Assembly (NCBI GenBank): GCA_977862235.1
Contig: OZ374560.1
Coordinates: 1,240,001-1,304,000 of the forward strand
Length of the DNA stretch: 64,000 nt
Reading direction: 5' to 3'
Source: Dudresnaya verticillata
Taxonomy: Eukaryota
Part shown: positions 9,058 to 63,260 of the stretch, piece after piece
How positions within the stretch are numbered: the first letter of the stretch is position 1
Layout of the letters: each line of letters begins with the position of its first letter
Program-made: the position numbers and the translations under genes
The notes under the pieces: generated by a model
The model's input: the letters and a program-made list of their open reading frames with translations, nothing else
Databases searched by the model: none
Told to the model about the DNA's origin: nothing

Positions 9058-9069
9058 GAGGGAAACTAA

Positions 9070-13461: not shown

Positions 13462-14100
13462 GGTTCCACCGAACGTGTCGAGACCTGAACCTCCCTCAAG
13501 GCAAAAGGTCTGCAACAACTCCCCAATGACAGCCGGGTTCTTCTCTTCGACGAGTACAAGCGATCTCGTGTTTGGTCTCGTCAATTTATCCCTTGGGACT
13601 GGTACGCGTGACACATCAGCGAATCGCCGCTTCTCCGGTGCTTGCAGATCATTGTAGTTGCTTGCTAGGTCTGGTTTATATCCTTTCGGGTGGACGCCTG
13701 GAGCTCCCGCAAAGACTGCAATCTCCGCGGCATTCTGGGGTGCGGTTTGGCCACGGTGTGCCTGCATTGTCGAAGTGTCCTTCATAATCACGTAAGGGTA
13801 AGCGGGGCATTTGAACTGGTACTTCACAAATGCCTCGCGGAATTCCGGGAATAAAAGGAATGACGTAAAGACTACCCATCCACCGGGGATAACAACCGTT
13901 CTTGCGAAAGCCACTAGGGCCTTAATCTCCTCCCCAATCATGAAGTTGTCGTAACTTTCACCAGCCCCAGCCTGAGACTTCTTTGTGCCGTACGGTGGGT
14001 GCGTCAGCAGAATGTCAAACAGTTTGCTCCCTTCCTTGCCCACGGTAGTATCGAACTTCTGCCAACGCATCTGGAAGCACTCCAGTTTCATTTCTTTCAT
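13462..14100 (-). pseudogene. N4-cytosine/N6-adenine DNA methyltransferase domain (beta-class motif order), C-terminally truncated
   Basis: FDILLTHPPYG is motif IV (DPPY with a D>H change). It is followed by PGG.VV, then EKN...GGSGLDTFGGT (motif X/I). Homology to the 62.5-63.3 kb copy stops at about 13462. Confidence 0.8.
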
Positions 14101-20300: not shown

Positions 20301-20553
20301 CGGCATATTCCTTCTCGATTTCAACGTTACGAACAACAGCCAGGAACTGCCCCTTCTTCCCCAGCTTGCAGAGTTCGTGGTTGTGCACCACAACGCAGTA
20401 CTTCCCACTCTTGTCCGCTCTTGAGGGTACCATCGGCTTGAAAATTCTCGCACACCCCACGTTCGTGCCTTTCAAAAAAAGATTTACCATCCCATCCCCA
20501 TCCTCACCGATCACCATGATGTGCGTGTGAGGACCAGCACTAGAGGGGCGCAA
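17372..20553 (-). pseudogene. DDD-type RNase-H-fold transposase-like gene (Sola-like), frameshifted
   Basis: Cys motifs KCCTRKC and CTEC, then SVIIDGADQS, LYLQVDDCSRENKN and FLPIGYTHADIDQVFS. These match the QxDNCxxxNKN...GHTHxDxDxxF transposase-derived family. The ORFs at 19496-20553 may be its N-terminus. A 39-bp in-frame duplication lies at about 18282-18359. Confidence 0.7.
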
Positions 20554-22024: not shown

Positions 22025-23525
22025 TCTACGCCCGCCTGCGTCGCAAGTTCTTCGAGAGAATCATGTCCCAGGATTATACCTGGGTTGGCCACAACGACGG
22101 TGGTGAGCTCACGGACCGCGTCGCAGGAGATTCCAATCATACTAAGAGCGGCATTGGCGACAAGCTTACTAGCGCCATCCATTGCTTTGCTATGTTCATC
22201 ATCGGTGCCATAATCGCGTTTGTGTATGGTCTGCTGCTCACCCTGGTCATCCTACCGTTGCCCTTCTGCTCATCGGAGGTGATGCAATCTTCTCAAGTTC
22301 GCCACTGTGACAGAGAGTACTGGCGATGGTCTCGGTGCGTATTGTGCCGCTGGCGCCATCGTTAGTGAGGTCATGGGCCTCATTCGTACTATCACCGCCT
22401 ATGGCGGACAGTAAAGCGAAGCGAAACGCTATCAAGCCGACTCGGCTCTCAGATCTCGGAGCTGCACAGTGCGTAAAAGCAGACTCTCGCAAGTCTACAT
22501 TTGCCGTCATTGGCTTTGGCCTGTGGTTTTTCATAATCTTGGTCGACTAATCGCGAGATTCTATGATGTGGAAGAAGGGGCTGTTTAGTTTCATGGGGTG
22601 AACGTGCGAGCTCTGAATGGTCGGTGGCTCCGTGCCCAGATTGGGTATGTAGGTCTAATGCCACGGATGTGAATGTGGATGAGAAGACCAAGAAGACAGT
22701 GCTCACAAGACGTGCAGTGCACCGCGTATGTCGGAGGAAGAGATTGTCAATGCGGCGAGGCAGGCTAACGCGCATGTCGGAGGAAGAGATTGTCAATGCG
22801 GCGAGTCAGGCGAACGCGCATGGCTTCGTCATGAAACTGTCAGAGAAGTAGAATATGATGTTGGGAGAGCTCTCCAGAATTCTGCTTAAGCTGCTTAAGC
22901 TGGCTTCGTGCTTTGCTAGAGTGCATGCACCATGGTGGAAAAAGGCAGAGGGTTTAAATTGAAGAGGGCACCGACCCGCAACTCGAAGATACTGTTCCTT
23001 TACGAGTCGACTGCTGCTCTGGGTGCGCAGTCAGAGAGGGTTGTACAGGACGAAATGGAGAAGGCATCAGCTGGTCTAACTGCGGTAACAATTGCGCACC
23101 GTCTGGGCCTAGTGAGAATTGTGACAATATCTTTGTGAATGATCACGGACGAGTAGTTGAGTCTGGGAGTCACAACGACTTGGTCCGTGTGGAAGACGGG
23201 GCATATCGAACTTTGATAGAACATGAAAATGTGTAAGCTAAGAACGTTGAGGAGATCAACAGCAAAGCTCCTAATGATGGGACGACAGGAAAGGCGGAGG
23301 CTTACGTGTCCAAGAATTCAGTGTTGAAAAGACTGCAAGCACGCGCTATAGATGAGTCTGAAGAAGAAGGGAGAGAACCGGACGTAGATAGTGGGGCTCT
23401 TTTCCGAGCGTTCCGTCTGAACACTACCGAGCTTCCGCTTATTTCTCTAGGCGCTGTGGGTGGTGTGGGTGGCGTAATGACTGCAGCTACACTCCCAGCA
23501 ATGGTCATTGTGTTTTCGAAGGCAA
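22025..23525 (+). pseudogene. Captured, decayed fragments of an ABCB/P-glycoprotein (MDR) transporter
   Basis: ARLRRKFFERIMSQDYTW...GELTDRVAGD...GIGDKL (TMD1), EEIVNAASQANAHGFVMKL, and KILFLYESTAAL..QSERVVQ...TIAHRL (NBD). Many stops and deletions. A 46-bp duplication lies at about 22728-22830. Confidence 0.85.
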
Positions 23526-24102
23526 CGAATGGTAAGACGCTGGAATCAGCGAAACATCAGTGCTCGGAGTCGCAGCACGCGTTGGCGAACCGATTCCTTG
23601 GTCTGCAGCAGCCAGTACACTATGCCATAATGCAGACAGCGAGTAATCATTCTCCCGGAAAAGCTCCTTGGAGTGGGAATACGTTTCAACAACGAGCCTG
23701 CCTCCGACTGCATCTGATTTCAACCATGATGAGCTAGTGTTGTTCTTGACTACCTGGTTCAAGTCACGCGAAAGCTGATAATTCCAAAAGTCATCGACTG
23801 ACGGCGAAGCAGAAACGAAAGGCCCATCACACCATTGCCGTCGCGTGCGTGTGTGCAGTGGCATCCTCGTCTCAGTCATGGCGCATTCCCCGGCGTGGCG
23901 CAGCTCAGAAGACGCGACGCATCGCGTCCGGGCCTTGCGTCGGAGCTGCGCTTGTGCTCCAACGAACCTTCGAGCACTGCAGGGCTACCATAGTCCACTA
24001 AGGGGCATCTCCTCCACAAATACCCCTGCTACCATGATGACTTCTTGAGCGCCACTGCGAGGATTGCGGGTAGTCTATTCTCTGCTCCTTCATCGTTAAC
24101 GC

Positions 24103-24410
24103 TCAATTGAGCTTGGGGGCGGGGGCGGCGTTCTGAAAAGCATTGAAGAAGGCCGAGGCGACGCGGGGAGTGGGAGCGGCTGGGCCCTTGCGGGCGGAGC
24201 GCGAGGAGGCATTGGGCTTGCGCTTGCGGGATTCTAGAAGCCCCGCGCGCTCTACGGAGAGCTCGTCCTCGAGCTCGAACTCGCGCTCAAGCGCGTTGTC
24301 GGCGGGGTCGAAGCCGTCCGCGGCCGGATGGTTGTTGTCGTCGATGAAGTCGCGGGCTTCCTTGCGCTTGCGCGCGGCGATGGCGGCGTAGGTCTCCACG
24401 TGCACCAATG
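24103..24410 (-). pseudogene. Possible captured fragment of the DNA polymerase alpha catalytic subunit N-terminus
   Basis: VHVETYAAIAARKRKEARDFIDD resembles the Pol alpha N-terminal motif (V.E.EY..lv..RR.E...FI.DD). Short match only. Confidence 0.4.
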
Positions 24411-24711
24411 AAGACGTGTGCAGCGTGCACATGACAATTTGTTAGTGCGGTGCGGGCGCGAGGCGGTGCGGGCACGAGGTGGCGAGGTGGCTAGGGCGCG
24501 ACGTGACTCGAGCACGAGGCGGCGCGCGTGCGAGGTGCCGAGGTGGCGGGACGTTTGGTTGGGTAGAGGGTGCTAAAGGCGACGCGGCGTGGTACGACGG
24601 TGACGGGTCATGCTGAACCGCACTCGCCGGTGAGTTTCAGGTGGTGCAGCACTGCGTGTAGTGGCATGGGTGCTCCCTGAGGAAGCTGCGAAAATGCCCC
24701 ACCCCATACTG

Positions 24712-25028
24712 GCATGGGGCACTTGCGCGGCGGCCTGGTGGGGCGCCGATGCCATTTCTGGGCAAGTCTGTCCGGCCCCGCGGGGCGCGTGGGCGTGCGG
24801 AAATTTATGGGAAAATATTTTCGGAAAGTTTCGGGGGTAATTCGAAACTTTTCAAGGGTCATATAATGGGTGTGCGGATGGCCATAACTTGGGAACGGCT
24901 TGACTTGAGAGCAAACGGATTGCACCACTGTTCTTAGCTCGCTCCCCTCTTGCCAATAAATGTACGAAAGTGGGTACGTTTTCCATTCTGTTTGAAAAGT
25001 AGATTCTGAAGCGGCCGAAATCAGTGTT
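24712..25028 (-). repeat. Element A right TIR
   Basis: Reverse complement of 12754-13072. Confidence 0.9.
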
Positions 25029-34079: not shown

Positions 34080-34861
34080 TGTGGTGCAAATCCACTGGGT
34101 TGAAAAGAGGATGCACCTCAGGCTGTTCGATGGCCCGGTGGTAGCAGGTGAGGTAGTAGCGGTAGAGTAGGGGAATAGCCCCGTAGTGCGACAGTAAAAC
34201 ACGACAAGACCAAGAAAAGGGGGTTACCCTAGAAAGGAAAGAAAACAAAGGAAAAATAAAGGAAAAACAGGATTCTGTACGATGAAGAAGGGTAGCGTAC
34301 CCACTGGAGTCCAGCCTAGCGACGGAGTCGATAGGGTAGGAGGGCGTGTCTCGCTGGGCCCAAGCTTCGCTGTTTATTGTATGAGGGTGCACCTCAGGGC
34401 TCTAATATAATATGTACAAGGCGGGTGCGCCTTGGTGGCGGATTCTAATAGTGCAAGGGGGCGCGCCACTTGGCATTGCGTAGGGCGCACAAATCTATAA
34501 TTACTTACAAAATATTAACTGTCAGCCTCTTGACAGCGTGGTCTGACAGTATGCGTTGAGGGAGCGCACGTGCGCCCGTGTGCGCATTGTCGTTTCGAGG
34601 GGCCATCCTTGCTGCCAGCCGGCGCCGGGAGCTGTCCGTCGGGACGGCTTACAGGGTAATTTCCCCAATGTCATTGCTGGCGCACGCGCGTGTCGACAGA
34701 GCCCGTTGCGGCGGGGAAATTGCTTCTGAGCTCAGAAATGTGCGAAGCGGATGATCTGCGGGTATCGGCCGTTGCGGCTCGTCATCCGCAGTCGCGCGAG
34801 TCGCGGGCGTGGTCCGTTATGAAGAATTCTTCAGTACGGTGCGAATCCGATTTGCGCCACA
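34080..34861 (-). repeat. G2 5' LTR
   Basis: Direct repeat of 9912-10705. Confidence 0.95.
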
Positions 34862-37400
34862 GCTTGTACTTTTCCTCGATCATGTAGTAGTCCTACGGGA
34901 ACAACATATTACTGAGGTCCGCAGTTGCGGCACAGGATGGCTCCGGCACGGCAAGTAGGTGTTTTCTAGAAGGCAGAAACTTCCTTTCTCAACCCCTGGC
35001 GCCATCCAGCAAGCTGCGTCTGCTTGTTCGTGCAAACATTCCTTTGTTAGATGAAGAGCAGACGCATTGAGAGCGACCGTCCGCATTACAGCGGCCCGAA
35101 TAACCTCTTCGACGTGGCCCTAGGAGTATCTCTCCAGTTGCCTGCTCCGTCGCAGGGCCGTCGAGTCGACCGGACTCGAGCCAGCTTAGGGCGCGGTAGA
35201 GGCGTTTTTCAGTTTCTTCCTCACACGTCCAGTCGCGGCACGGCACGAAATCCGATTGACCTTAGTTCCTAATCTGCATTAACGCCGCATCTGGCGGCGG
35301 GTCTGTGTCCTCTCTACGCTCCAGATCCCAAGGAATTCCATTTGGAAAATCTCGAACTCCCCGCACTTCCCCGGCTCCATTCCAGAAGAGACCTGATTCT
35401 CGATTCCCACCAGATGTCGAACCATCCTTTCCACTCCCGTTGAATATAATACCATGCTGTTGTGGAACTCGTCTAGGATCGAAGCCAAAGTCAGTCGCAC
35501 TATCAGTACTTGTCTCGCCAGGTATCCTTCGGCGTTGTCCTTTTCCGGATCCCCGATCCTTGCCGCCAAGGTCTATACGTCGGGTTTCTAGGAGCCAGCA
35601 GTTATCCAGCTCTCTATCTCAAAGGGACAACGCAATCAGGTGCTGGGAAGGCCAAGCCTCTGCGTCGTTCGCGAGGGCGCACCTGGTGCAACTGCACACT
35701 GGTCCGTTTCTGGACACAATCGTTTGGGGATAGTGAGAACGCTCGAGCATGACAAATCTGGTCCCTCGCACATTCATGTTCCTGAAATATCTCTAGGAAA
35801 GACTCCAACTGGCTTGTATTAGAGACTTGGGAACAGTTGGGCTCGTAAAGGGCCACGAACTCTGGTCCGCCATGCAGCAACACTCGGCGGGGGCTTTTAG
35901 GGCGTTCAGAAACGCTCTGCGCTGCCGGCGGTTAAGAGGTTTCATCCCTTCCGGAAACAGGACCGTTCGGTCTGACTCCCCCCGGAGTCCTTTTGACTGT
36001 CACTATCTCGCTCGGAATCCGAACTCGACTCAGCCACCATGGCTGTAGTATGAATGTCGGGTCGATCCGACGTCTGATACTTGCTGGTCCGAAGCCGCCA
36101 CACAGACCCGTCGATGGGTAGCTGTTGGGGTTGGTAGAGCGGTGTAGGCCGCGTGCGCCCCGCAGGTGCGGATCGACGGCGTCGATGCCGGAGCGCGCAC
36201 GGGGCGTACCGTACGCGGGTACGCAGCGGCCGGATCCCAGAGTCCCTGTCGAAGGGCGGCACGAAGCCGACGGAAAGGAAAAGGAAAGGGGAAAGCCTAG
36301 CGAGGCAAGGGGAAAAAGGGAAACCGCCCGCTGGCGTAAGGCAAAGGGATCGAACCCGAAAAGGCTGGGGGCAAGCTTCAGCGCGAGCTGTTGCTTGCCC
36401 GGTTTACTGAGCCGTCGATGGCCGACGGTCTTAAATACCCTACACTATGCGCACTACGACTATTTCCACAGTAGGTGCGCCCCACAACACCAACGCGGGA
36501 GGTGTGCGAGCGCGCGCCCATACACGTGTCGACACGTCCGGGTAACGGTTACCGTGGGCGCGCGCGGGGCGTAACGGGAAGCGGCCCTCTCAACGGCTCG
36601 ATGCCGGAGAGCGTCACAGGGGCGCGCCGTGTGCGGCACGGCGCGCGGCCGCTGCCGGCAGCAATGCGGTCGACCGCTACTAATTCAACGAAAAAACTAA
36701 GGGCACGCTGCCCAACCACGACTCGCCAGCGGGCGTCATCGGGTGCACCATTACAGTGCAGGGCTGCCAGCATACCTTACAGCCGCTGCTGGTAGGGTGC
36801 TGACAGCTATACTACAATGGCGCCTGACTGCTGCAGTCGCGATCCAGCTCGGGGCGGCTCTCGGCTTCCCCTTCCCACATCAATCAGAAAGGTTCCATGG
36901 TCTTGACGTGGCGACTTTCTCTTCGATTTCAGGGTATGAAGAGGACTCTTTCGGGATATGAGGGGGCGTTCTAGCTCCCGCAAGCGACCCTCAGGCTATT
37001 CAACGATGTTCCTGCGCCCGTTCCATTTATCTCATCTGAAGAAGCCCCGCCATCCCTGAACTGAAGGTCAAGGGAGCTCGGCCGGTTTCCCTGTTGTTTC
37101 TGTCGGGCCTTTGGTCCATTTTAAGTATGGAAATCAGTCTCGCACGGCAGCGAGTTGCCTTCGGCGATATTTGCCCTCCAGAGCGCGATACAAACTGTAC
37201 TATAGTATCTCTAAGGCACCACCGCGTACGGCGGCCAGACGAGACCCCAAGAAGACCCAAAAGACCTGTCAGATTTCGTAGAAACTGGCCAAACGTAGAA
37301 CGGACCTGCGTGCCGGTAGCAAGCGTGGTAGAGCGGGAGCGCGCAGACGAAGTCGTGACCAAAATCTGTGATGAGGACAGAAAATGGCCAAGTCGGGGGT
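34862..37400 (-). pseudogene. Highly decayed retroelement pol/gag remnant (probable target of G2, may continue at about 9550-9911)
   Basis: Weak integrase-like ILDEFHNS...GVERM and RNase-H/RT-like pieces. Heavily disrupted. Confidence 0.35.
36044..36816. mobile_element. Solo LTR with 5-bp TSD
   Basis: TGTAGTAT...ATACTACA termini with ATGGC on both flanks (36039-36043 and 36817-36821). Confidence 0.85.
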
Positions 37401-37684: not shown

Positions 37685-38108
37685 TAAGAGAAACTTCTAG
37701 AGACATATGGAGTAGAGCAGTATAAGAGAAACTTCAAGAGACATATGGAGTAGAGCAATACATATAGCGTTGGAGCGGCCAAGGCCTGGGCCGCCCCGCC
37801 TCCCCTCCCCCTCACCCCGCGCGCCCGCCGTCCCGCCCGCGCGTCCCGCCCCCCGCCCCCCGTCTCCGGAGTGTGCGTGTTTGTGTGTGTGCAGTACGTA
37901 TAGCGTTGGAGCCAAGGCCTGGGCCGCCGCCGCCCCCCTCCCTCGCTCCGCGTGTCCGCCGCCGCGCCCGCGTGCGCCGCTCCCCCCGCCTCCCCGTCTC
38001 GCGAACGCTGTGTGCGTGTGTGAGTGTGTGTTGGTGTGTGTTGATGTGTGTTTGTGTGTGTGTTGGTGTGTGTTTGTTTGTGTGTTTGTGTGTGTGTTTG
38101 TGTGTGTC
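37685..38108. repeat. Short tandem duplications plus an imperfect (GT)n microsatellite
   Basis: 38-bp unit x2 at about 37685-37760, a duplicated TATAGCGTTGGAGC..AAGGCCTGGGCCGCC block, and a GT-rich run at about 38010-38108. Confidence 0.85.
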
Positions 38109-38261
38109 ACGCGTGGTCAGCTGCGTCCGTCGCCTCTGTACGCGCTTATCATAACGATCCAATTTGGCTTCTTATGATAAGAGACATACAAATAAGCTTA
38201 CAGAGGGAACTGACAGCGGTCCAGAATTACAGTGTTCCTATAACATTGGATCTGCGACATC

Positions 38262-41372: not shown

Positions 41373-42021
41373 TGTAGTGCTTACAGCCCCTGGCGGCTCA
41401 TTATACCAAACGGAGGCAGGGGTGTGAAGGAGCTGAAATTACTACGCTGTAAGTCCTGTAAGACTCGTCCGGATCGGGATCGGCATCCGGATTGACCACA
41501 AGGCAAATGTATTCGCACCTGTAAGCAACACGCATGGCCACGTGTGTCTCTAAACACCATCGCAGCCACCGTCGTGCAACGCGACCACGGCGGCGAGACT
41601 GTCAGGAGCCTGGCTGCATAGCACCGCGCTTGTCAGACGCAGCGCGGACCAACACGTGTCCTGAGTTCCCGCGCGTTGCCATACCACTGCACCCGCCCGC
41701 GGAACCGTAGCAATGCTTAGGTAATCGGTCGAGGACGTCACAGCAAACCCCGGTAAGCCGGCCTTGGTCCAGACTGCCCCTCCTGCGAAGCGCGTATCTT
41801 ATCGCTACCCCGAGGCTCAAGCGTCTATGTAACCGTGCTTCCACGCTCAGCCCCGTCGCTGATATGTTTCTCTTTGTCTTCTTTTGTTCTTTCTTTCCAC
41901 CTGGGGCGTTTACAGTCCGCCCAAGGCGCTGCTACGTGCTCTACCACTACCGCCAAAGGCGCTGCTACCCGCCGAGCCCAGAACTGCTTGGACGTGCTCC
42001 GTCTACGACGTTTGCACCACA
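41373..42021 (+). repeat. Solo or partial LTR
   Basis: TGTAGTGC...TTTGCACCACA termini. Similar to about 8430-9057 and to the U5 end of the G2 LTR. No TSD match. Confidence 0.6.
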
Positions 42022-48000: not shown

Positions 48001-48602
48001 GCGATTCTGTACCGTCAATAATCAGAGTGAACTTCTTAATTCAGTGGCTGAGAAGCAAGGAATCCGAATAGGGGATGATAGTTGGGTACGGAGTCGAGCT
48101 TGTTCAACATCGACAATTCCGAGTTCATGTATCGTGCGTTGAAACTTATGTTGGAACGATTGGTCTGCCTTCGCGTCTTATTCCAAAATCTCGCACATAG
48201 ATTTCAGTATGCTCTCCGTGCAAAGCTGTCCAACGCTAAACGATTCACGCCTTCTCCGATACTGAGGCCCGTTCTGCACCTTGTTTTTAACTGGGAAACT
48301 GTAAACAGTGAATTTCCGGTTCACGATTTCCAGCAGGGGAGCGCACCCGCACCTATTTCCAATGTCGGAACTGAAAGCTGCCCTTTTGGGTTGTGTTGGA
48401 CAACAGTCGAGTGATTGCTGTGTACACGAGGCGTCTAACAAGCACCATGACGTCCCTGTCACCCGCCGTCAACGGCAGCACGCGTCTGAGACGCATTATC
48501 GCCCGTCGCGTCCGGGCAAGGGCAGGCAGTACTAACTCCAATGCTACGGCACTTGCCTTGGCGGTGGTGCGAGTCATATTCTCAACTGTGCACTCGCTCG
48601 CG

Positions 48603-49820
48603 ATGCGCTCAAATCGTTACGGCCGGCACGGTGAGTTCTCGGACTGGGAGAATGCGCGCATATTGTCTCGTACTCCGCTCGACTTCGATCTTCATCAACG
48701 TCTATTCACCGAGAGGAAGTTTAGGCGCTTATACCGCGTTTCCAAGGCCGACTTTGCAGCGCTTGTCACAATAGTCGCTCCAACTATGTGTCGAACACAC
48801 TCTCGACCTTTCGGCAGCGCTTCATCTGTAACCCCGTCTGTCATGGTGGCAGTGACACTAAGATATTTAGCGGGAGGGCGTGTGCTTGACCTTAGTTGGC
48901 CATACGGTCTAGGAGACTCAACAACCTATGAGGGCATTGATAAAACGCTGCAGGCCATGGACAATCTCCGTGACAATATCTCTTTTCCCAAGGGCACTGC
49001 GGATTGCGAGAAGGAGGCCCGAGCATTCCAGCAGCTCAGATCATCTCCGTTTTATGAAATCATCGCAGCAATGGATGGCATCGCAATAGCCATCCAGTGT
49101 CCTCGCCTGCCGTGTTGTTGTGATCCCCGCAAATAGTACAACCGCAAAGGCTTCCACGCCATATCTGTCCAAGGCTGCGGCTCAGAAAATTACAAGGTCT
49201 CTTATGTGTCAGCAATCCATGCTAGTTCCACGCACGACTCGACGGCGTTCCTCTTCACGATGCTGCATAGAAAATTGGTGTCTGAGGAGGAGGAAGGCGG
49301 CCTTATCTCTTGGGCTTGCATTGCAGCCGAAAATGCGTATGGTAATGGTAGTGCTGGAGGCTGCATTTTAACGCCATACGCAGGCGCTCTCACTCCTAAG
49401 AAGGATGCCTTCAACTTCTACTTGTCGTCGCTTCGAATTATTGTAGAGCAAGTGTTTGGTGTAATTGCGGGGCGCTTTGGGATCCTGTGGTCTCCTCTCC
49501 GATGCTCCCTCGCCAAGGGCGCCCGCATTATAATTACTTACTGCAAGATACATAATTTTATTATCGACAGGCGCATAGATGCTCTTGGAAGCGCTGCAGA
49601 CAGCGGTGAGTATGCAAACCTTCCTGCAGACCCTGATAACAATGTTGTTGGAAGGCCTGAAGTTCTTATTCAGGATCTGCTCCATCGCGATCAAGAGGCC
49701 GCACGGCACGTGCGACAAGGCTCGACAGTGTTGCGCGAACAGATGTCTGACGAGTTAGAGCTCCTCAATGAAGCTTTAGAGCTCCTCGGCCTTCGCCGTC
49801 CGCCGCGAGGAAACAGGTAA
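48603..49820 (+). pseudogene. PIF/Harbinger (DDE_Tnp_4/HARBI1-like) transposase
   Basis: FRRLYRVSKADF, VTLRYLAGG, IAAMDG, (stop)YNRKGFHAISVQ, STHDS, AENAY and RIIVEQVFGVIAGRFGIL. In-frame TAG at 49134. Confidence 0.9.
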
Positions 49821-49986
49821 GACTTTACAACGCAAAACGTAGTTACTCCTCCTACGCGTTGTGTGCCACGCGTGGCGCGTCACTATCACCGGCATCGTTG
49901 TTGCTAATCGACGCAATATCATCGTAGACACCATTCAGAACACCCGTAAGCATCCCTATCTTGCTTACATTCTTTATATCCTTCCC

Positions 49987-51344
49987 TTACTCTTCAGTTA
50001 TTGCCTTCTCCAGATTACCAGCCGTCTTAAGCATTCCGTCCAGAGCCGCTGACTTTGCCGTCTTTGCAAGGAACTCCGCAGCTTTCCCGATATGTCTGGC
50101 CTTCTGCGCGTGAGCCATCTCAGATGCTACTGCCGACGCCTCATCTGGGGGAGCAAACATCTCCATGCCACGCACCGTGATTTCAGACAATGAACGTCCG
50201 TCACGTGCTCGTTTGTTGCGGCGGTATGTTGCGTCGATGCCCCGTAGACCGTTGCTGCCGGTCCCGATTCCCTCCTCTCGACGCGCATCCCCGGGCATCA
50301 GCCTTGTAGCCATCTTTGCAATGACAGACCCATAATCAGTCCCAAGAAAGGTATGCATGTTCATAATTGCTGCACTGCCGCGGGCAAAGTTTGAGAAGTC
50401 CGCTTCGTCATTTTGCCCTGACGCTGTGAAGGTATCCCTAATTATGGTGTAGGAACTCCGCGTTTCCCCAAACCTTGCCGAGAGGAAGGACGACGGGCGT
50501 TTGTGAGGGCAATAGGACGGCAAAACGCCTCACGTCACTTTCTGTGATACCATTACACTGTGATGGCATCTGGTTTAAAAGAATCGTTATTGAATAGTAC
50601 TGCTAAATGTTCCTTCCATGGACACACTGTTTCATGATCCAGCTGGTCGCGGTCTCGAGGCACGGAGAGCAGCTGTCGCGCTGCCGTCATCCGGCTGTCC
50701 GCGATAGTATGTAAAAGGCGGGCTACTTCGCCGGTGCTGAATAGCGCCTGACGGGCCGGCACGGATTTTGCGGCACGAGCACACTGCGGGGCGTATCTAG
50801 CCACATAAATATTTCCAGAAGTCTCGGTGAGCACGGGGGCAGTGGGTCCTGCTGTCCAAGCATATGATGAGACTCCATGTTTCGAAACAACCTTGGACTT
50901 GCACCTGGAAGAGAGCGGTATTCGGTCGAGGATGAAAAACAACGCCTCCTTTGACATCTGTATGCGCGCGTGCGCGGATCGCTGTTCGTCGTTCATCATC
51001 TCAGGAGTAATTTCATTCTCCTCTCCGTCTTCTCCTCTCTCTGTTAACTTCTCTTCCCCACCGCCGCCTGGGCAGCATCTAGCTGCTCCGCCGTAGTTCC
51101 GAACTGAAGGAGTCGTATCGCGACTACTTCTCGCTTCAACGCTAAAGAGAGGTTCTTGACACCTGAAACCCTCACCATGTCGATCGCATACTCCTTGAAG
51201 AAGGCATTGTCCCATACAAAACACAGAGCTTCTTGTATCATATCGGCGACGGCTTTCGGTTCTGCTCGAATTTTGCGACAAAGATCGCCACAAGTGGAAA
51301 CAGTTCTCACTTCCGGCCATCGTGTTGAAAGGAGGGCACAACAT
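49987..51344 (-). pseudogene. Probable second (DNA-binding) ORF of the Harbinger element
   Basis: Long decayed ORFs convergent with the transposase, as typical of Harbinger elements. FSTGEVARLLH is only weakly Myb-like. Confidence 0.45.
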
Positions 51345-51574
51345 TCAATTGATTAAGCAACTGGCCAGACATCAAAACAAGAAACACGACTCCGCGTTCT
51401 ATATAGACGGCATTTTACGATGTGATGAGGGGGCTGAGAGAAGAAGCGGACCAACTGACGGCTGTACATAATTGGAAGGCCCCAACTGCTGTCGATGTCG
51501 CACGAGCGTAAGATGAGTGCAAATACCTCACGGATAGTACTATTAAGCAAACAGCAGGCATGGTACTTCACCTG

Positions 51575-52015
51575 CACACGAGAACAATCGCAGTGCTCGG
51601 GAAGATCATGAACGAGGAGTTACCAGAGATGACCTCGCGTCACCAACTGCACGCTTCCTGGAGTGCTGTGGATAAGATGACTGAAATGCCAGCTGCAGAT
51701 TGTCGAGTCTTCAGGCGTTTCGCACACATATCAACTTTACGGTCATCACGACCGTTCATGAACGCAGGGATTTCCGACGAGGGAGTAGAAATACAGGTTG
51801 CGACTCTGTACCGTCTGCGGGAACTGTCCAGAGCCCATCATTTCAAACTGATGGACACAGGTTTACGACCGAACAATTCGAGAATGCCAGTGCGGCGATG
51901 CGAGAGGTCCGCAAGTTTGAATGTGTCCCGGAGCAAAAGGAAAAGCTACCGTCCCTGAGGGTACTGCGTTCAAATATCCCAAGGAGAACGAAAATGGATG
52001 TTGAGATATCCATAA
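51575..52015 (+). pseudogene. Middle-region fragment of a second ParB-MTase gene copy
   Basis: IMNEELP...CRVFRRFAHISTLRSSRPFMNAGISDEGVEIQVATLYRLRELS aligns with IMNEEFP...CRVYRTFSRIYTLRSSRAFMNAGFSDNAVETQVATLYRRRELS at 14.8-15.1 kb. Confidence 0.85.
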
Positions 52016-52299
52016 GCCACGCAGCGTGCGTTTCGTGGCCACAACTCTTCTAGTTCTAATATGGTTTCAGGAGCGGGGCTCCTCTGTGCTGTCATGCTCT
52101 TGGCATCACAGCAACGAAGAAGGTTACTGTTGATAACCACGCTTTCAAGCCGGGTACAGCACCTTCTGCGCAAGAGATGGAAACGATTAAGGCAACCCAA
52201 AATTGATGAGGTCAGGTCTAGATACGGGGTTTGTTATGGGGTTAGAAAAGCGCCTTATCGCACCGGCCGCAAAACAAACTGCTACGGAAGAATCAGGGG

Positions 52300-52554
52300 A
52301 GATATATCGTGATTCAATGCGGTGGTACACATGTCGGAGCAGGACTTCGATGAGTTTCATAACCTTGTATGCAACAAAATAGACAAACTGCTCCATCCAA
52401 ACAAACTACTGTCCCCAGATCGAACGAGATTCTATTCGTAAGATGAGGAAAATGCTTTCATCCTCCGAGCTTTTGTTGCTGTATTTGGAGGTACTCAGCG
52501 GTGGGAAATGCGGAGCCGATGCCATTGTCAACCTGTCGGGGAAGTACGGCGTTT
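52300..52554 (+). pseudogene. N-terminal part of a second Harbinger/ISL2EU-like transposase, interrupted by element B
   Basis: HMSEQDFDEF...LSSSELLLLYLEVL...LSGKYGV. Continues in frame at 60173. Confidence 0.7.
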
Positions 52555-53237
52555 AATACAGATTTCCGGGTTTTCAGAATCTGTGTTCCGAATCAGTCTG
52601 AAAAAATGTTAATGGAATAAATATTTATATATCGCGTTAGACTGGGGAGAGGGAGCTGAGAAGAATGGTGTAATCTGTTTTGCGATAGCACGCGCGGTTG
52701 CGGAGTTACAGCTTGCCGCATATACGGGTAAATGTCCCCGAAACTTTCGTGAAAGTTTCGAAACTTTCGGAATTTCCGAATTAAAATTTACCCAGAAATT
52801 GCACTGCCGCCTGCTGCCCTCCCGGGCGCGCCTGGCAGCGCACCGACGCTCGTGCTTCAGCACGCTTGGCCCCGCCCGCCGCATCCCCGGCCCGCCCTGA
52901 GCTGTGTTCAAGGGCGCAGTGTCACCCCGCACGACTGGTACTGCTTGGCCGGCAGGGTGAATCTGGAGGGTAAACAATTCATGCGAGGCGCTCGAATACT
53001 CACGTGCTGGTACCAGTACCACCCCTTCCCGCACGTGCGCATCATTCCACTCCGGATCCTGGGCCAGAGCGGCTCACCTCGCGCAACAGCTCCACCTCCA
53101 TCGCGCGTGCCCCGCACCTCCTCTACCGCCATCGCGCGTGCGCCACACCATCTCTACCGTCATCGCGATCTCACATCAAACTGCGCATGAGGTTCGCCAC
53201 GCCTCGCCCCTGCCGCCCTCCCCATCACCTCGCACCC
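52555..53237 (+). repeat. Element B left TIR (about 0.6-0.7 kb, diverged internally)
   Basis: Reverse complement of about 59580-60168. Confidence 0.85.
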
Positions 53238-56039
53238 GTAAGAACAGGCGACTCTTGCATCCACAACACGCCCTGCACTGCGCCCCCAGCCGCGGAGTCT
53301 CGCGCTGCGCATACCGTCGCAGATGAGCCGAACAGCGAGGGAGACCTGTCCCCACCGCCGGGTGGCGCGTCCTCAGCGGATGAGGCCCCCGAAACACAAG
53401 AAGAAGACGACGACCAGATGACGATGGCGATGGACTGCAGAGATTTGTTTCCAATTTTGTTGCGTAGCGCGACTCCATGGTCCAGGTCTGTTCAGACCTG
53501 CACGGGAAGTCCTTAGAAGAGCTGCAGAGTGACTTCTATGCTGCCACTGAATCCACATCCGCGTCGTATACCTTCTTTGCCAACGATGCTCGCTCGTGCG
53601 AACCCCTCCCGCGCGACCTCCCAGACTACGCTATCATTTCCACCCTTAAATTGTAGGATTCCCTGGCAAAGCAGAACTCTGCATCTTGGCTTTTAACATG
53701 ATGGACCGCACTGGTGCTGGCTACGTCATACGGGATGATTTTGTGCGTTACGCCGCGTTTATCTGACCAGTTGCGGATGCCGCGGTTGCAGGGCTTGTGT
53801 TTGATGAGCTTGTGCCATAGCTAGCAGAGTGTGCTGCAGAAGAAGAGGCGCCATTAGACTTGCAGGAATCCAAACAGAAAGGCCCTCACTTTGAGATGGT
53901 TGCGTAACTGGAACTTGCGAGAAGTTAACGAGGAAGCGCAGCCAAGCCGTTGCAGAGGGCTTACATCGACTACGACCTTTTCCATGCATGGTCAGTGCCA
54001 ATAGTGATGCTGCATCACTTGTATGTCAAGATGCGGGCTGTGACATCGACAGCTTTCCCGTTGCTACAATGGTGACTTCTCGGTCAGCAGCCTGGCAGAC
54101 AACGGGGCTCCCCCGTATGACCTTTATCCACCAGCTGTTGCGCTGCGCTATAAGATCTGACGCACATTCTTTCTCGCTGTTCAAGACAACTGCCACTAAC
54201 AAGAAGATGACTGGCTCAACTTACAACAGCGGCTGGGTATCGACCCGGGTGAAAGTCTGGTCAATTAGCAAGATGCGTTGGATCTCAGTGCTTTGTTTCA
54301 TACCTTGGGAAAGCTGTACCTTAGCCAGAGGTATCATATTCTATGTCCAGCTGTTGGCAGGAATCGTTAGTTTGTGAGGTCTGCGGCTGTCGCAGCTGTG
54401 TCCACGACAGACAGAGATATCTTTCATGATGCGTGACTGCTTGATTGCAATACGTCTACTTTCTGAGAGGGAGGTAGCCGTTGATGGGTTATCTGAAGGA
54501 AGAGAACGCGAAAGCTGGCTCAACATATGGAAATGGTCGGCAAGGGCGTAAAGCAGATACCGGGTAAGACCCAACCCTATCGCAACATGTGTGTAAGCTT
54601 ATGCGGCAATTCACATCGAGGCAGAAGCACCATTTGTGCTGCTGTGTTCAAGTCAGAGAGAAGTATAATTGCAACATTTGGGTTCATCTTACGGGGTAAA
54701 TCGTAGCAGCCCACAAACTTCACCTTCATTTGGGCTTTGGTGTCTTGCGTCAACTAATGCCCTCGTTATATCCACAGCAGACTCAAGTGTCTGAGCTTAG
54801 CGCCGGTTCCGATACTGCAGCCGAAACCGACAAGGTTGGTCGAGAAACATCAGAGATTCGCTTGCTTAACTACGCGCGTGACACGGACCCATTTCGGAAC
54901 GAACCATGTCCACCACTTCTGGCAGTCGCGGCACATTCTAATATTGCCCGCTGCCCATCTTTGAGGAGGGTAACAAGGAAACGGGTATGAACTTGCTGCT
55001 CTTCTCGCATGCCGAGCGGTGCGACCAGAAATGAGAGTAAAGAAGAGTTGAGCATAATAATCGTTCGCTTCACTAGTTTCCTACGCCATAGCGCAATATC
55101 GTCAGCCATAATCACATGCTACTCCTCGCAGGAGAGCATGTACTGCCACTGACAGCACTATCCCGGTAGAAGTTCACAGCGCAAAAGATGCATCATCGCT
55201 CGGTCCCATTTCCGCAGCAACTTCTCTTTCACACTGTCGGATCTGCAGAGTTCCATCGAATTGTAGCTCTTGCAGAGCATGGGATGAATGTCCAGCGGCA
55301 TGGAAGATCTGCAAACAAGCATCTAGAGGAATGATGCATCCACGGCCCCGGTAGAGTAGTAGTAGCGAGGCGGGTCGGGTCACAGCACTGTGAGAATATA
55401 GAGAGCTTCGATTTGCAGGTAGGTGCACTCAAGCAATACACTTGCGTCTCATCGCGGGACGAGTGCCCGCAGTTCCGAGATTACTGCAATCGCGTGAAAA
55501 CTTATCCAATATTATGGAGAATGACCAACAGCTTTTCGGAAAGCCGCACGTAAATTTCTATTAAACAGCACATACACTGTACGATATCTGAAAACCTATG
55601 ATAGGTTTTCCGAAACATGAGTGCTCATGTGCTGTTTAATAGCTTTTTGAATCTCACTGGTTGAAAAGCTGTTATAGGTTTTGCGATTGCCTCGGGCCAA
55701 ACACCTTTTTGATAGAAACTACGTTTGCTCGACCCCAGGACCTATTCCATATTATGGAGAATGCAAGATAGATTTTCAGGTCGTGCGGCATAACTCTCCA
55801 GGATTTTTCCACGAGATTTATCGCTGATTCCCTTCTCAGACTTTTCTTTGGGAACACCTGGGTCCCTCCACCCGTCCGGTTGCCGGCCAGCGCCCTCTCA
55901 AACGCAATCGCAACCGAACCGCCGCGTTTCGCTACAACCCCCTCCCGTCCGCCCCCCGCGACTGGCGCCGGTCGCGCACCACCGCACCCCACCGACCCGC
56001 ACAACTACTGTGCTTCCCGTCGCACTGCCGCACCACGCC

Positions 56040-56490
56040 CCCGAAGCTACATTGGGGCCTTTTTATGCGTTGCGTGCAGTCCAGATGGAAAGCATATCGC
56101 CACGAGCGGTGAAGATGGTCTGGTTTCGATCTGGTGCCCTTCAGAGGAGCGGCTGGTTGCGTGGTTAGAGAAGCATACGTCTTGGTTCAGTGCAGTGGCG
56201 TGGGACTCATCTCTAAGTGCACCCGACCGGTATCGCATCGGCAGCGCAGGGCAAGATGCGAAGCGGTTGCTGTGAGATTTTGCGTTGGATGTGTTGTATC
56301 ACATATCTCCGCAATCAAGACTTGGCACTGGTGTGGTAGGGTTGTGTAGCTACGTACGTGATGTGAACAACGCGCCCAGCGCTGCGACCTCCTCTGGCAG
56401 CAGTACGAATGGTCCTGTTGGGAATGGCTCGGCGTCTGGGCAGCGAACAGTGGAGCGCAAGGCGAGCAATCTTTCTCGGCTGCGTGGAAA
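56040..56490 (+). pseudogene. Captured WD40 fragment (WDR20/DMWD/CreC-like)
   Basis: SYIGAFLCVACSPDGKHIATSGEDGLVSIW...HTSWFSAVAWD...YRIGSAGQD..LL*DF. Confidence 0.75.
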
Positions 56491-56491
56491 T

Positions 56492-57492
56492 AGCGAGTTC
56501 TATCAGTGCGACTTTGACATCGCTGACAAATACCCCTCCATGGTCCCGGATGTAGACGTGCTCGTTGTGATGATACAGATGTTCGACAAACTTGCTAGTC
56601 AGGGCAAGTTCCACGCAAAGCTTCTCTAGAGCATCAGGAGCTACAACATCAAGGTCAGCAACATGGTCATCATGGATGTCATCTTCCGTGTGTGTGGCCT
56701 ACCGGACGAAAAGCTTCGGACCATCTGCTCTGCGGTCGACAAGCTTGACAAAGAGAGCTAGGAGAATGTCAAGGAGATGGTTGTGGATAAGGGACTGGAT
56801 GAAGCCGCCGCCGACAAGATCGAAAAGTTTGTTATGATGAACGGCGACCCCTTGGAAATCTTAACGAAGTTGCGCGAACAAGAGGAATTGGCAGAGGTCT
56901 TTGGCGAAGCTCTTGATGTAATGGAGAAGCTTTTTAACTTGGTGGCATTCATGCGCGAGGGGCAACCGCAGTGGCTTTCGTTTGATCTCCCGCTCGCTCG
57001 TGGGCTCGACTAATACAATCGTGTCATTTTCGAGGCGGTCTTGGTCGACAAGAAAACGAGCTTGGGCTCCATTGGCGCTGGGAGTCGCTATGACAATTTG
57101 GTGGGCATGTTTCGTAATCAAGTATACCATGTGTTGGGTGCTCTCTAGGTATTGACAGAATAGTGAATATGGTGGTCCAGGTTGCGCAGAAACAGGCGGC
57201 AGCGGAGTCGGTTGACGGGAAGGGAAAGGTGCGCGACGACGATAGATGTGCTTGTTGTGACGGTCGGAAAAGGAACTATGAAGCCCAGACTGCGGCCTTC
57301 CACAGAAAGCTGGCGCGCCGGGTTTCTATTGAGTTTTGCTTCTATGAGAATGGACAATGGGAAAGCAGGTGACACAGGCCATTACTCAAGGCATTAAACT
57401 CATGGTGATTATCGGAGAGGACGAGATTGCAAAAGGTGTAGCAAAACTTGAAGTGCTGGCGACAAAGGCCGAGCAGACCATCCCAAGGGGAA
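56492..57492 (+). pseudogene. HARS: Captured, decayed cytosolic histidyl-tRNA synthetase fragment (central and C-terminal part)
   Basis: [51 protein letters not shown] and VIIGEDEI. Stops and frameshifts present; N-terminus absent. Confidence 0.88.
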
Positions 57493-59144
57493 TACGGCCC
57501 TGTGTTAGCGCCCTTTTCGAGAGGAGTGATCATCGTTCATGGTCGTCGTCGATGCTCTTTGAATGGACGGCATCCCGAATTGCTGTTCAACGCGAGATTT
57601 GTCTTCTTCGTGGGCCCAGTTCGTTTCTGACTCACCATGTCCGATGTTTGTGGTCAAACAAGATCAGCGATGTTGAACCCACAAGCCAAGCAAGCCCGGA
57701 GGAAGTGCGTTGGTGTGAGATATATGTAAGTTGCAGTATTGACTTGAAGTTGTCGAATTTCTGGTGGACTCACCTTAGTCACCTTAACCTAGGAAAAACA
57801 GTTCAATCACTCTCCAACCCATGCGCTGAGCTATCTTATTTGCTCAGGTCGCGATTGGGTCGGCTTTGCAGGTGTTCGAAGTGTCCACGCTAGGACAGCC
57901 GTATGAAAATATCAAAACAGCAATGGCAGCTCACCGAACAGGTAACCTTAGAGGTTCCTTGCGCCGCTTAGACTCGTCTTGAGGAAGCTCTGCATTTTGG
58001 CAAGGGCTCATGCCGTGGGCCTGCATAGAGGCGGTAACGAAGGGAAGAATGCCTATCTTTGCGCAGCATGAGATAAAGAATCTCAAACAATAGGTGGGGA
58101 TGGGACGTTTGCGTCTAGTGCCATCGGCGGAATGGGTAGTGGCGTGTGCCAAGGCTACTACAAAATGGGGTTCTGTACGTTCATGACGACAGTTCAAGTA
58201 ACAAGAACAAAAGGCGTTGGCGGTGGTCAGAAGAGCTGCATAGCTGTGGCTAGTGACATCTTGCCAAGGGAAGGAATCTTAGGGATTTACAAAGGCGTAC
58301 GCCATTGACGTCAATGCTGTCGCGTTGCGGCAAGCAACGAATTGGGGATCTCACTTTCGGTTCTGCAGAGTTGTTGAGTCCATCATCTACAGGAAGGATG
58401 GCGCCTTTTGATAGTGTCGTAAGGTATCATACTTTTCAATCACTGGCAGACTCACCTCTGGGCTCGTGCAACACAATTCGAGAGAGACTTTTCTCAGCCT
58501 CATTGCACTCTTGCAACTCCCGTGGCGTGTCGGGAAAGCTCCGAGTACGGGAATCTGCAGTTAGATGAACGGAGCACCGGCTTTGGCGAGCAGAGCGAGG
58601 CGGACGCGGTGAGCTTACAAACCTTCGTTCTACAAAACCAGGCGCGGGGTCGCAAAGGAATGGGAAGAAGACGTCACCGTTGATTGCGTACTTGTGGAGT
58701 TCGAGTCGCTCACCAGGAATGGCAGGCTACCAGTTTCTGTACAGAAGAAGTTGCGCGAGTCCCTTCACAAACAGTAGCGCCCGCGGCCATCTGTAGAGCA
58801 AGGAATAGATGTAAGTTTACTGAGTCAGAATGGGAAGTATAGAGTGAAGGTGATTAGGTTAATGTGTTTGAGAGCTGCTATGAAACTGGTTTGTTTTCCT
58901 GTTCGTCCAGGACTACCACTTTCTATACTTGAGCAGAAGTGCTAGGACGCGAAATTGGTACTGTGCGAGTGCTGTGCGTTCCTTGCCTTGCAATGTAAAT
59001 AGCGGGGTTTGTTTGGTCAGCGTTGCAAAAGCGTTTGAGGCAAGGCACACCGGAAGCCATTTGAAGTTAGAGCGGTTGATGTCGTGGTCCAGCACGTGAT
59101 GAAGTTTCAGCACTTCAGCAGTTGGCGTCGACGGAAATGAAAAC

Positions 59145-59345
59145 ACGCGAAATTGTTGTTGCGCAAGTGATTGTTATTTGCCTTGCAATGGCAATACGAG
59201 GGCAATGATAACACACAAAATTGTTGTTGTGCGAGTGATTCTTATTTGCCTTGCATTAGCAACACGGGGGTAATGATAACTCGCGAAATTGTTTTCGTGC
59301 GAGTGGATTGCGTTATTTGGCTTGCAATGGCAATAGCGGGGGGTG
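59145..59345. repeat. 68-bp tandem repeat x3 (a related copy lies at about 58950-59015)
   Basis: AAATTGTT..GTGCGAGTG...TTATTTGCCTTGCA recurs at 59150, 59218 and 59286. Confidence 0.8.
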
Positions 59346-59579
59346 TTTGCGAAGCGATGTAAACGCAATTGACGCAAAGCGCACCGGGAGCCATGCGCAG
59401 GTAGAGCGGTTGGTGTCACTCTGCAGTACCTGATGTAGTTTCAGCACTTGAGCAGGACCTGCTCAATTTTTCCCCAGTCGCACAACACTTACCACCGCGG
59501 CGGGGCATGTCGTAGATGTGAAGTCTACGACTTCACGCGCACTTTGACATGCCTGCGCGGTGCGGTAGAGTAGGTGCGC

Positions 59580-60168
59580 GAGGTGCGCGGCTTGATGGGG
59601 AGGGCGGCAGGGACGGGTGTAGACAGCGGGGTGTGGTGAGCTTGCAGTCTGATATGGCAAGCGAGACGGCGGTAGAGGTGGTGCGGCACAGGCGCCGCAC
59701 TGGACCCGGAGTGGAATGATGGCCACGAGACGGAGGGGTGATACTGGTGAGCCAGGGTAAATCTGGGCCAAGCAGTGCAAGTCGTGTGGGGCGACACTGC
59801 GCCCTTGGTCCCTGCCCAGGGCAGGCCGGGGGTGAGGCGAGCGGGGCCAGACATGCCGGAGCACGGGCGCAGGCGCCCGTGCGCGCCCAGGCGCCACCCC
59901 GAGGGGCTGCAGGGGGCAGCGCAATTTCTGGCTAAATTTTAATCCAGAAATTCCGAAACTTTCCAAACTTTCGCGAAAGTTTCGGGACATTTCACCCCTA
60001 TATGCAGCACGCCATAACTCCGCAACCGTACATGCTATCCCCAAACCGATTCCACCATTATTCTCAGCTCTCTCTTCCCAATCCAACGCGATATAGAAAT
60101 CGTCATTCCACGAACATTTTTTCAGACTGATTCGCGACACAGATTCTGAAAACCCGGAAATCTGTGTT
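59580..60168 (-). repeat. Element B right TIR
   Basis: Reverse complement of 52555-53237. Confidence 0.85.
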
Positions 60169-60172
60169 GTTT

Positions 60173-60930
60173 CTGGGGGCTGTATCTGGAGTTATATACA
60201 CCATACAGCATGGGCAGGTTACAGAAACCTTTTAGAGAAGGTTCCGATAACATGGCCGTATGACGAGGAGAGAAAGGTTATGCATAGGCTAATTAAGGTA
60301 TTCCCGAACGCAGTGATGTTTGTTGATGGAATACGCCAACCAATCTTTTGATCTGGCGACGAGGACACCCAGAATGATCAATACTTCGGCAAAGAAAAAG
60401 CACACTGCTATGAAGCGCTAATTTATGTACATGTGTACGGATTGATAGGGCGTGGCGAGATTTCGTACTCTTAACGGATGCATGACACAGCGTTGTTCCA
60501 GCGCAGTGAAATTTGCAAGATGTTTGTAAGGAAAGGAGAATTCTTTACAGAGGGGAGCAAATGATATGCGACGCTGGTTTTGTGGGTGCAGGAGACCCTG
60601 CATGGATAGTTGTACCATTTAAACGCAATTTTGGTTTGTTTTTCGAGCTGCGAAAGCAGTGGAAAAAGACGTGAGGCCGAGATTTCGCAATGCGAGGCCA
60701 ATAGGATACATTAAGAACCGGAACCGAACATTTATGGGGAAGTGGCCATACAGCCAGGATATGTTTACGGTACCCTTTAACGTCACAGTACTGATTATGA
60801 ACTGGAAACTACGTCGATCGACGCAACAGCTTGTCTCGCTTAACACAATGATGAAAAGACTCTCTCGTGTGGAGAGGCTAATGTTTGCACAAGGTGAATC
60901 ACGACTTGGGGCACTTCTTCACATTTAAAT
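60173..60930 (+). pseudogene. C-terminal part of the second Harbinger-like transposase
   Basis: SGGCIWSYI...ITWP...FPNAVMFVDG...QYFGKEKAHC...MHDTALF...IGYIKNR. Confidence 0.7.
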
Positions 60931-62279: not shown

Positions 62280-63260
62280 TAATAATAGAGTCCTATCCGG
62301 CCAAATTAAATATCTTCATTGAGACACCAGCAGTACCAGAAGGCACAGACCCGAATTCAGAACCAGAGGCAGATGCTTGTACTGAGGAGGGTAAGACAGG
62401 GGGTGTTGGTGGTAGCAGGTATACTGCAACTGCCCCCGCCGCATCTGAATCAACACTGCAGTCAGATCGACTGAATATTGGAAAGGCAGGCGACGAAAAC
62501 GGAGGTGTCGCGCGAATCGACTACCTGGAGCAAAGGAAAATCACATGTCTGCAGATGATGTGGCAGAGATACGACTCCTCCGTCCGCAATGAAGGAAGCA
62601 CGTCGTTCGACCTTTTGAATACGGACCCCCTATGGTACCAAGAGGTCAGAATCAGGCACAGGCAAGAACTATGACAACTTTCTCAGCGATGAGGAGATCA
62701 AGGCCCTTGTCGGGTTCGCCAGAATGGTTGTTGTTCCAGGGGGTGGGTTGTTATCTTTACGTCTTTTCTACTGTTTCCAACGTTTCATGAGGCATTTTGA
62801 AGTATCAATTCACGTGCCCTGCGTACCCGTACGTCGTCATGAAAGATACAAAGTCAATGAAAGCACACGGTGGGAACAGGATGCCTCAAAATTCCATGGA
62901 AATTGCTGTCTTTGCGAGAGCGCTAGCGGAGCATCCGCAGGGGTTCAAACCGGACCTGTCTGGTAGCTACAACCAGATAACATCATCGGAAAGCCGTCGT
63001 TTCGCTGGCATTTGCCGAGTCCCTGTACCGAAAGACAAACTGCACAAGCCCTCTACAAAGTCCCCAGTCCTCGTGGAGGAGAAGAACCCAAACTCAATAT
63101 CTGAGATGATGGAAACATTCTACGGGAAGAAGGGTCCGTCCTTGGTACTTACAAGGGTACCATGACGACAGCAATTGCAGCGCTACGGACCGGGCGTTCA
63201 TGTACATCAATAGAACAGAATCCTGAAACTTTCCGGCTAGCCCATCAACGACCCATTAGA
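62280..63260 (+). pseudogene. Second copy of the linker + N4/N6 DNA methyltransferase domain, with complete C-terminus
   Basis: IDYL...WQRYD...FDLLNTDP(P)YGTK...PGGWVVIFTSF...EEKNP..ISEMMETF, then after a frameshift EGSVLGTYKGTMTTAIAALRTGRSCTSIEQNPETFRLAHQR. This is the classic VLDPF.GSGTT..AA...GR....IE tail. Confidence 0.85.

Follow-up and report, generated by a model that had tools for sequence, protein, structure and literature searches.

The window analysed here is a stretch of 64,000 nucleotides from Dudresnaya verticillata (NCBI GenBank assembly GCA_977862235.1, contig OZ374560.1, positions 1,240,001 to 1,304,000 of the forward strand; positions below are counted from its first letter). 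It contains an element of about 7.6 kb with long imperfect inverted ends, element B (52555-60168), which we read with good confidence as a non-autonomous transposon, likely of the Sola1 group, inserted in a Harbinger-type gene and loaded with four host-gene fragments as well as the tail of its own transposase. An earlier note, made from the letters alone, had described B as a terminal inverted repeat (TIR) transposon related to another one in the window, element A, and filled with unrelated host fragments. This description stood. What had been missed is a remnant of the transposase, the superfamily to which B likely belongs (Sola1) and the transposase gene in which it sits.

Ends, cargo and transposase tail of element B

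The borders of B consist of two TIRs, flanked by a target-site duplication (TSD):

52551-52554, plus strand: left TSD, GTTT; a length of 4 bp is the best fit in the alignment of homologs across the empty site
52555-53236, plus strand: left TIR, 682 nt, terminus AATAC; nearly ungapped against the right arm over the outer ~400 nt
59582-60168, minus strand: right TIR, 587 nt, terminus AACAC; aligned to the left arm
60169-60172, plus strand: right TSD, GTTT, directly outside the right TIR end

The left and right TIRs match at 479 of 577 aligned columns (83%), the inner third being gappy, so that the earlier figures of 0.6-0.7 kb TIRs and a GTTT TSD were borne out. A 28-nt terminal motif, common to A and B, was searched for in the window with up to 3 mismatches. 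It was found at four sites, each of them an exact match at an element end, and in none of 100 shuffled sequences, which agrees with the homology of the A and B termini that had been proposed. Because the window has only these four terminal motifs, neither arm of B is a complete small two-ended element. The Kimura two-parameter distance between TIRs is 0.177 for B and 0.076 for A, compared with 0.064 for the pair of long terminal repeats (LTRs) around A; we set TIR divergence aside as a clock, because such TIRs can start out imperfect.

By alignment, cellular genes account for approximately 3.4 kb of the 6.3-kb interior, all of it on the plus strand, like the transposase tail:

53417-55019, plus strand: cargo 1, decayed DUF639-family fragment, residues 124-654 of the 922-aa protein P0138 (collinear alignment)
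56045-56494, plus strand: cargo 2, internal WDR20-like WD40 fragment and low-complexity linker (PDB, Pfam)
56495-57500, plus strand: cargo 3, cytosolic histidyl-tRNA synthetase (HisRS), residues 125-459 of 478, 5'-truncated (homologs, tree)
57821-58399, plus strand: cargo 4, 5' part of a mitochondrial carrier gene (Pfam PF00153, Atlas)
58613-58777, plus strand: tail of the cognate DUF7869 (Sola1-like) transposase, ~53 C-terminal codons with the stop (profile and pairwise match)

For cargo 1, P0138 was the sole match among 776 candidates; within 428 codons of the fragment there are 10 stops and 5 frame breaks. For cargo 2, human WDR20 ranks first among single-stretch PDB matches (E~2e-18), setting aside repeat propellers that sum repeats; one stop is present in 96 codons. 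From the WDR20 piece the reading frame continues into the HisRS piece with no stop at the junction, an outcome with a chance of one in three. The HisRS piece has three stops in 342 codons and four frame breaks, and its closest named relative, among the matches listed, is that of Chondrus crispus (68%). We built a tree from the fragment and 49 hand-picked matches, 50 sequences in all; of the 120 matches listed, it includes 40 from the 57 best and 9 from lower ranks. The fragment fell in a supported 31-row red-algal clade that includes Chondrus and leaves out Porphyridium and Galdieria, with no resolved place inside it and with an end branch of 0.36 versus a median of 0.23. This placement in the red-algal (florideophyte) clade indicates that the cargo is host-derived. 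The carrier fragment gave two PF00153 matches (E=9e-4 and 0.028), both under the gathering cut-off, and no match in PDB, while 30 of 30 Atlas matches were Mito_carr; it has one stop in 177 codons. It presumably resembles yeast Yhm2.

Frame breaks occur in three of the four cargo pieces, and intact orthologs of the cargo are present in related red algae. The cargo is most likely a non-functional, pseudogenised passenger, and the decayed WD40 and HisRS fragments announced by the earlier note were confirmed by sequence comparison. The cargo pieces are truncated: the DUF639 gene stops at residue 654 of 922, HisRS lacks residues 1-124, and the WDR20 piece is internal. No intron-sized gaps were seen in the cargo pieces relative to their relatives; since red-algal genes are intron-poor, this does not separate capture of DNA from capture of RNA.

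The same note had recognised no transposase inside B, and on this point it has to be corrected. A profile built from 16 longer outside relatives (P0122-P0137), A being excluded, covers the transposase of A and gave one further match in the window, at 58613-58771 in B (iE=2.5e-10). Compared directly, the remnant is 46% identical to the A transposase over 50 aa (E=3e-8; score 104, versus a best of 52 in 100 shuffles). It points toward the right TIR, and because the last codons and the stop are those of the transposase, B is a deletion derivative. With TIRs at both ends and a TSD, interior fragments of cellular (non-transposon) genes, and only positions 771-822 of the 823-position profile left, that is, no functional transposase inside, B has three of the characters by which Pack-TIRs are defined.

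The rest of the interior is not cargo:

55020-55480, no strand: 460-nt segment without match, between cargo 1 and the motif cluster (five comparisons)
55496-55777, no strand: AT-rich cluster of ATAG[CG]TTTTC half-sites, partly in inverted pairs (motif scan)
58936-59455, plus strand: subterminal array of a 68-bp unit, three tandem copies and one 334 nt upstream, just inside the right TIR

The 460-nt segment had no match in Pfam, PDB, PHROGs or NCBIfam, nor elsewhere in the window, and the searches gave nothing in favour of its being the first part of a ParB/methyltransferase gene. The motif cluster contains a palindrome with 13-bp arms (55587-55613), and a tract of 72% GC lies downstream (55860-56040). 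With up to one mismatch, ATAG[CG]TTTTC, a pattern picked after viewing both the A and B regions, occurs 15 times in the window: 4 times in A (16596-16900), 7 times in B (55496-55777) and at 4 scattered places. The form of the motif found in A, taken alone, has 6 matches in the B region, versus at most 1 in 300 shuffles, and this region ranks first among the 400-nt bins of the window. Aligned as blocks, the two clusters gave nothing convincing (scores 40 and 42, versus shuffle maxima of 45 and 39), so that only the short motif is common to A and B. No counterpart of the 68-bp array was found in A.

How many host loci contributed to the interior depends on cargo 3 and 4. Their apparently natural 3' end and 5' start are separated by a 320-nt spacer, and HisRS and carrier may have been captured as one block, which would bring the donor loci to three or four. 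Going further, one could propose that a single contiguous host block was taken up, by macro-transposition or one long gap-fill, and that later internal deletions gave it the look of a patchwork. All four fragments do lie on one strand, and the seemingly complete ends on both sides of the spacer have the look of a natural tandem gene pair. We nevertheless consider a single block unlikely: the motif cluster common with A, an element-type sequence, splits cargo 1 from cargo 2, both genes are cut internally at the WDR20-HisRS join, and the transposase tail comes directly after the cargo.

Element A and the superfamily of the two elements

Element A, a near-complete relative of B, lies on the other strand, closer to the start of the window:

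12754-25028, minus strand: element A, with AACAC termini, ~322-bp TIRs and a CGGG TSD
~20600-17375, minus strand: the frameshifted DUF7869 transposase gene of A (Pfam)
~15800-13150, minus strand: the ParB/methyltransferase-like gene of A, with weak matches to ParB/DGQHR (E=0.063 and 0.037) and to DNA-methyltransferase (E=0.0012)

A carries ABC-transporter cargo in antisense, and is itself inside an LTR retroelement whose LTRs (9912-10708 and 34080-34864) are 92% identical. At 24000-24420, a minus-strand frame of A resembles the acidic N-terminal part of yet another host gene, with no match in Pfam.

When the TIRs of A and B were aligned, as had been suggested, homology was seen to continue beyond the 28-nt terminal motif, with scores of 151 and 138 (shuffle maxima 85 and 81, in 300 shuffles each). 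However, A-B identity is 51-52% only, versus 83% within B and 90% within A. A and B are two families of one clade; the common TIR lineage formerly proposed holds at the level of the clade and not as one family. They have no cargo in common, as had been claimed. In both, the cargo is placed between the 5' TIR and the transposase, which hints, on two cases, at a preferred loading zone upstream of the transposase. The abundant, systematic capture process suggested by the earlier note would be a possibility, raised by these two elements of one transposon nest.

The motif cluster of A is found ~1 kb upstream of its ParB-like gene. Our hypothesis is that the ATAG[CG]TTTTC cluster would be a parS-like site for the ParB/methyltransferase protein. 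It could also be a captured promoter, or mark where a third element ends.

The transposase gene of A has a Pfam match to DUF7869 (E=1e-32), and its Atlas clusters are DUF7869 at 0.94-0.95. Three Asp motifs are present in A and its relatives: DGADQ, DNCxRENKN and GHTHxDIDQ. A model of the relative P0122 (mean pLDDT 66) gave weak matches to DDE transposases, an integrase and RNase H-fold proteins. It also matched BAH chromatin-reader domains over ~90 columns (probability 0.96-1.00, E~0.01-0.09). The family has a beta-rich C-terminal domain. If the range matching BAH is the C-terminus, the B remnant would be the end of a BAH-like domain.

It is highly probable, in our estimate, that B and A belong to the Sola1 group. 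A review describes Sola elements with a DDD transposase, TSDs of 4 bp and TIRs between 11 and 1124 bp long (PMC10741241); here the TSDs are GTTT (B) and CGGG (A), and the TIRs measure ~322 bp (A) and 587-682 bp (B). Sola1 is the most likely group because A resembles Sola1-1_Ec32 of Ectocarpus, which is reported with AACCG termini, an imperfect TIR of 282 bp, a TSD of 4 bp and a ParB-methyltransferase gene (PMC12477816). A has likewise termini that start with AAC (AACAC versus AACCG), a TIR of ~300 bp, a 4-bp TSD and a ParB/methyltransferase-like gene, and B has a long imperfect TIR and a 4-bp TSD; such anatomy is a resemblance and not a formal definition.

Other known groups were rejected. The Sola2 motifs DFAENY, SDG and TSHGK do not occur in the family of A, by eye against the alignment given in PMC3627910. 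EnSpm/CACTA elements, including Plavaka, need a CACTA/CACTG terminus, a short TIR and a 3-bp TSD, whereas the ends here are AAC/AAT and the TSD is of 4 bp. MULEs need a TSD of 7-12 bp and a Mutator transposase, and here these are a 4-bp TSD and a DUF7869 transposase.

Several points weigh against the Sola1 label, or against the reading of B as a whole. The label rests on likeness to published descriptions. That DUF7869 and the motifs DNCxxENKN and GHTHxD are Sola1 characters is our assumption, and neither DUF7869 nor PF25273 was found named in the open-access literature searched. The best fold match of the P0122 model is the IstA DDE transposase at E=1.5e-3, with none at E<=1e-3. The ParB and methyltransferase matches of A are weak, with none in PDB, and the gene lies on the transposase strand, versus the opposite strand in Ec32. 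Neither GTTT nor CGGG has the terminal A that the TSDs of Ec32 tend to have. As for the capture, it is read from the window alone. Finally, there is no second copy of B in the collections scanned: the terminal motif had no match in viral contigs and one in metagenome contigs, on L001, a bacterial contig rich in insertion sequences, which showed no similarity beyond the motif and was judged a chance match.

In view of the first of these points, of TSDs that are not AT-rich and of weak fold evidence, another or unnamed DDE superfamily with 4-bp TSDs could be proposed instead of Sola1, and the reading of the capture would be the same. We hold this improbable: the motifs of Sola2 do not match, CACTA/CACTG termini and a TSD of 3 bp are both lacking, insertion is not TTAA-specific, an integrase-type Pfam match is absent, and the anatomy agrees with that of Sola1-1_Ec32.

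Relatives of the transposase were also looked for elsewhere. Pattern searches of viral contigs gave 10 and 6 matches, none of which was confirmed. In genome contigs, 25 pattern matches led to four loci (L002-L005), distant relatives with 29-36% identity on short contigs (0.8-4.8 kb) of bacterial metagenome-assembled genomes; no TIR likeness to A or B was found at these four loci. They are possibly eukaryotic contamination, because L003 and L004 carry TG/CA simple repeats.

Insertion into a Harbinger-type gene and the transposon nest

On both sides of B lies one decayed transposase gene:

52148-52554, plus strand: insertion site, 5' half of the Harbinger/ISL2EU-type transposase gene (homolog matches)
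60173-60901, plus strand: insertion site, 3' half of the same gene, DDE_Tnp_4 (Pfam and homologs)

The right flank encodes DDE_Tnp_4 (Pfam, E=2.4e-4). A search with it gave 49 relatives, ten of which were compared with the window. The right flank was matched by 10/10, and both halves were found in 3/10, meeting at one residue, with the left match ending at 52553:

P0139: halves 2-44 and 44-153 in the empty-site test
P0140: halves 88-134 and 134-258 in the empty-site test
P0149: halves 127-171 and 171-299 in the empty-site test

P0148 had a weaker left-flank match, in another frame. When duplications of 0-9 bp were assumed, 4 bp gave the best score in all five relatives scored across the junction, and no gap was needed there. 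B is inserted into a Harbinger/ISL2EU-type transposase gene with a 4-bp duplication.

The possibility that genes decayed in place between two small repeats, which the earlier note had named as the case that would undo its proposal, or that the assembly is chimeric, seems to us very remote, even with junctions known from this assembly alone, and decay in place is refuted by the empty-site test, since removing B and leaving one GTTT rejoins the flanks, halves of one transposase gene, at the codon where the homologs continue, with exactly 4 bp duplicated, and since the 118 longest frames outside the B interior hold only transposon-type genes and the ABC cargo of A.

The Pfam matches of these 118 frames are Gypsy domains, a Harbinger transposase, the DUF7869 gene of A and a piece of an ABC gene; intact cellular genes were not found among them. 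The window is a nest of transposons. TIRs of the Harbinger-type element interrupted by B were looked for and not found. A second, decayed copy of the ParB/methyltransferase-like gene (51232-52017 and 62480-63144, 49-60% aa identity to that of A) is split by this Harbinger-type element, itself split by B; element ends for this copy were not found. A further Harbinger element, at 48375-51344, has a DDE_Tnp_4 transposase on the plus strand and facing open reading frames on the minus strand, which by eye look Myb/SANT-like. Diverged direct repeats (73-75%) at 8632-9259, 36488-36648 and 41602-41935 are probably older LTR pieces. At 37685-38120, units of 38 bp and 133 bp are repeated in tandem, with a TG-rich simple repeat after them.

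Proposed formation of element B and comparison with known systems

By analogy with work on Pack-TIRs, the following steps could have produced B. An autonomous ancestor would have lost most of its transposase gene, and the gap would have been filled stepwise with copies of host DNA, through template switching in the repair of a break or excision. Such a gap-filling or FoSTeST route is proposed for other Pack-TIRs (PMC8277862, PMC13317346). The transposase of an intact family member, acting in trans, would then have cut the loaded element and pasted it at the present site, the order of loading before jumping being a proposal only, and neutral decay would have followed insertion.

Elements of the Pack type are known for MULE, CACTA, hAT, PIF and Mariner (PMC8903248). 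Pack-MULEs, Pack-TYPE elements and Pack-TIRs, as described, are like B non-autonomous, have TIRs and a TSD, and carry host-gene fragments that are mostly pseudogenised and sometimes come from several loci (PMC8903248, PMC8277862, PMC13317346). They differ from B in superfamily and host, and B keeps a transposase tail; rice Pack-MULEs are given as mostly 1-2 kb, versus 7.6 kb for B (PMC6431247). The word 'Sola' does not occur in the main text of PMC8903248, PMC8277862 or PMC13317346, nor 'alga' in the main text of the plant papers PMC13317346 and PMC8903248.

Among algal elements, Sola1-1_Ec32 differs from B in being autonomous and 21.5 kb long, with its accessory gene on the opposite strand and with TSDs tending to end in A; captured housekeeping-gene fragments are not among its listed features (PMC12477816). 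The same source likens giant non-autonomous elements of brown algae to Pack-MULEs (PMC12477816). The giant Plavaka/EnSpm elements of red algae also combine a florideophyte host with large TIR elements (10.1101/2025.02.11.637652, PMC6431247). They carry PAGs, accessory genes of ParB and adenine-methylase type that are described as moving between transposon families (10.1101/2025.02.11.637652). Their transposase and termini are different, and PAGs are conserved, whereas the cargo of B is decayed host housekeeping sequence. Like B, the Sola2 elements with Fanzor1 combine 4-bp TSDs with a deleted transposase and carry additional coding sequence, one extra gene in their case, but they differ by their catalytic motifs (DFAENY, SDG, TSHGK), their short TIRs and a passenger that is a nuclease and not host fragments (PMC3627910).

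We found no report of gene capture by Sola elements, or of a Pack-type element with red-algal host fragments, in the open-access literature searched; Repbase Reports, subscription papers and the Bostrychia supplements (Supplemental Table 6, on transposon families with accessory genes) were outside this scope and could hold such reports. B is a Pack-TIR of a probably unreported combination of superfamily and host, gene capture by TIR transposons having so far been documented in flowering plants and animals.

The Bostrychia preprint describes inverted-repeat arrays beside the ParB-type accessory genes of Plavaka and proposes self-binding (10.1101/2025.02.11.637652). The inverted-repeat cluster common to A and B would be a candidate binding site under this published, as yet untested proposal, in which a transposon is bound by the ParB/methyltransferase accessory protein that it encodes. 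More tentatively, and we think it rather doubtful, Sola1-like elements of florideophyte seaweeds could form a genome-wide gene-shuffling system ('Pack-Sola'), in which several families load multi-kb host fragments upstream of the transposase in one direction and make in-frame chimeras, such as WDR20-HisRS, behind an internal promoter-like module. The A/B cluster would then be a parS-like site by which non-autonomous copies borrow, in trans, an epigenetic protector as well as a transposase.

This single copy of B is dead and its cargo pseudogenised. If the process is general, however, captured fragments would inflate gene counts, and it would offer a route to gene duplication and exon shuffling in red seaweeds.

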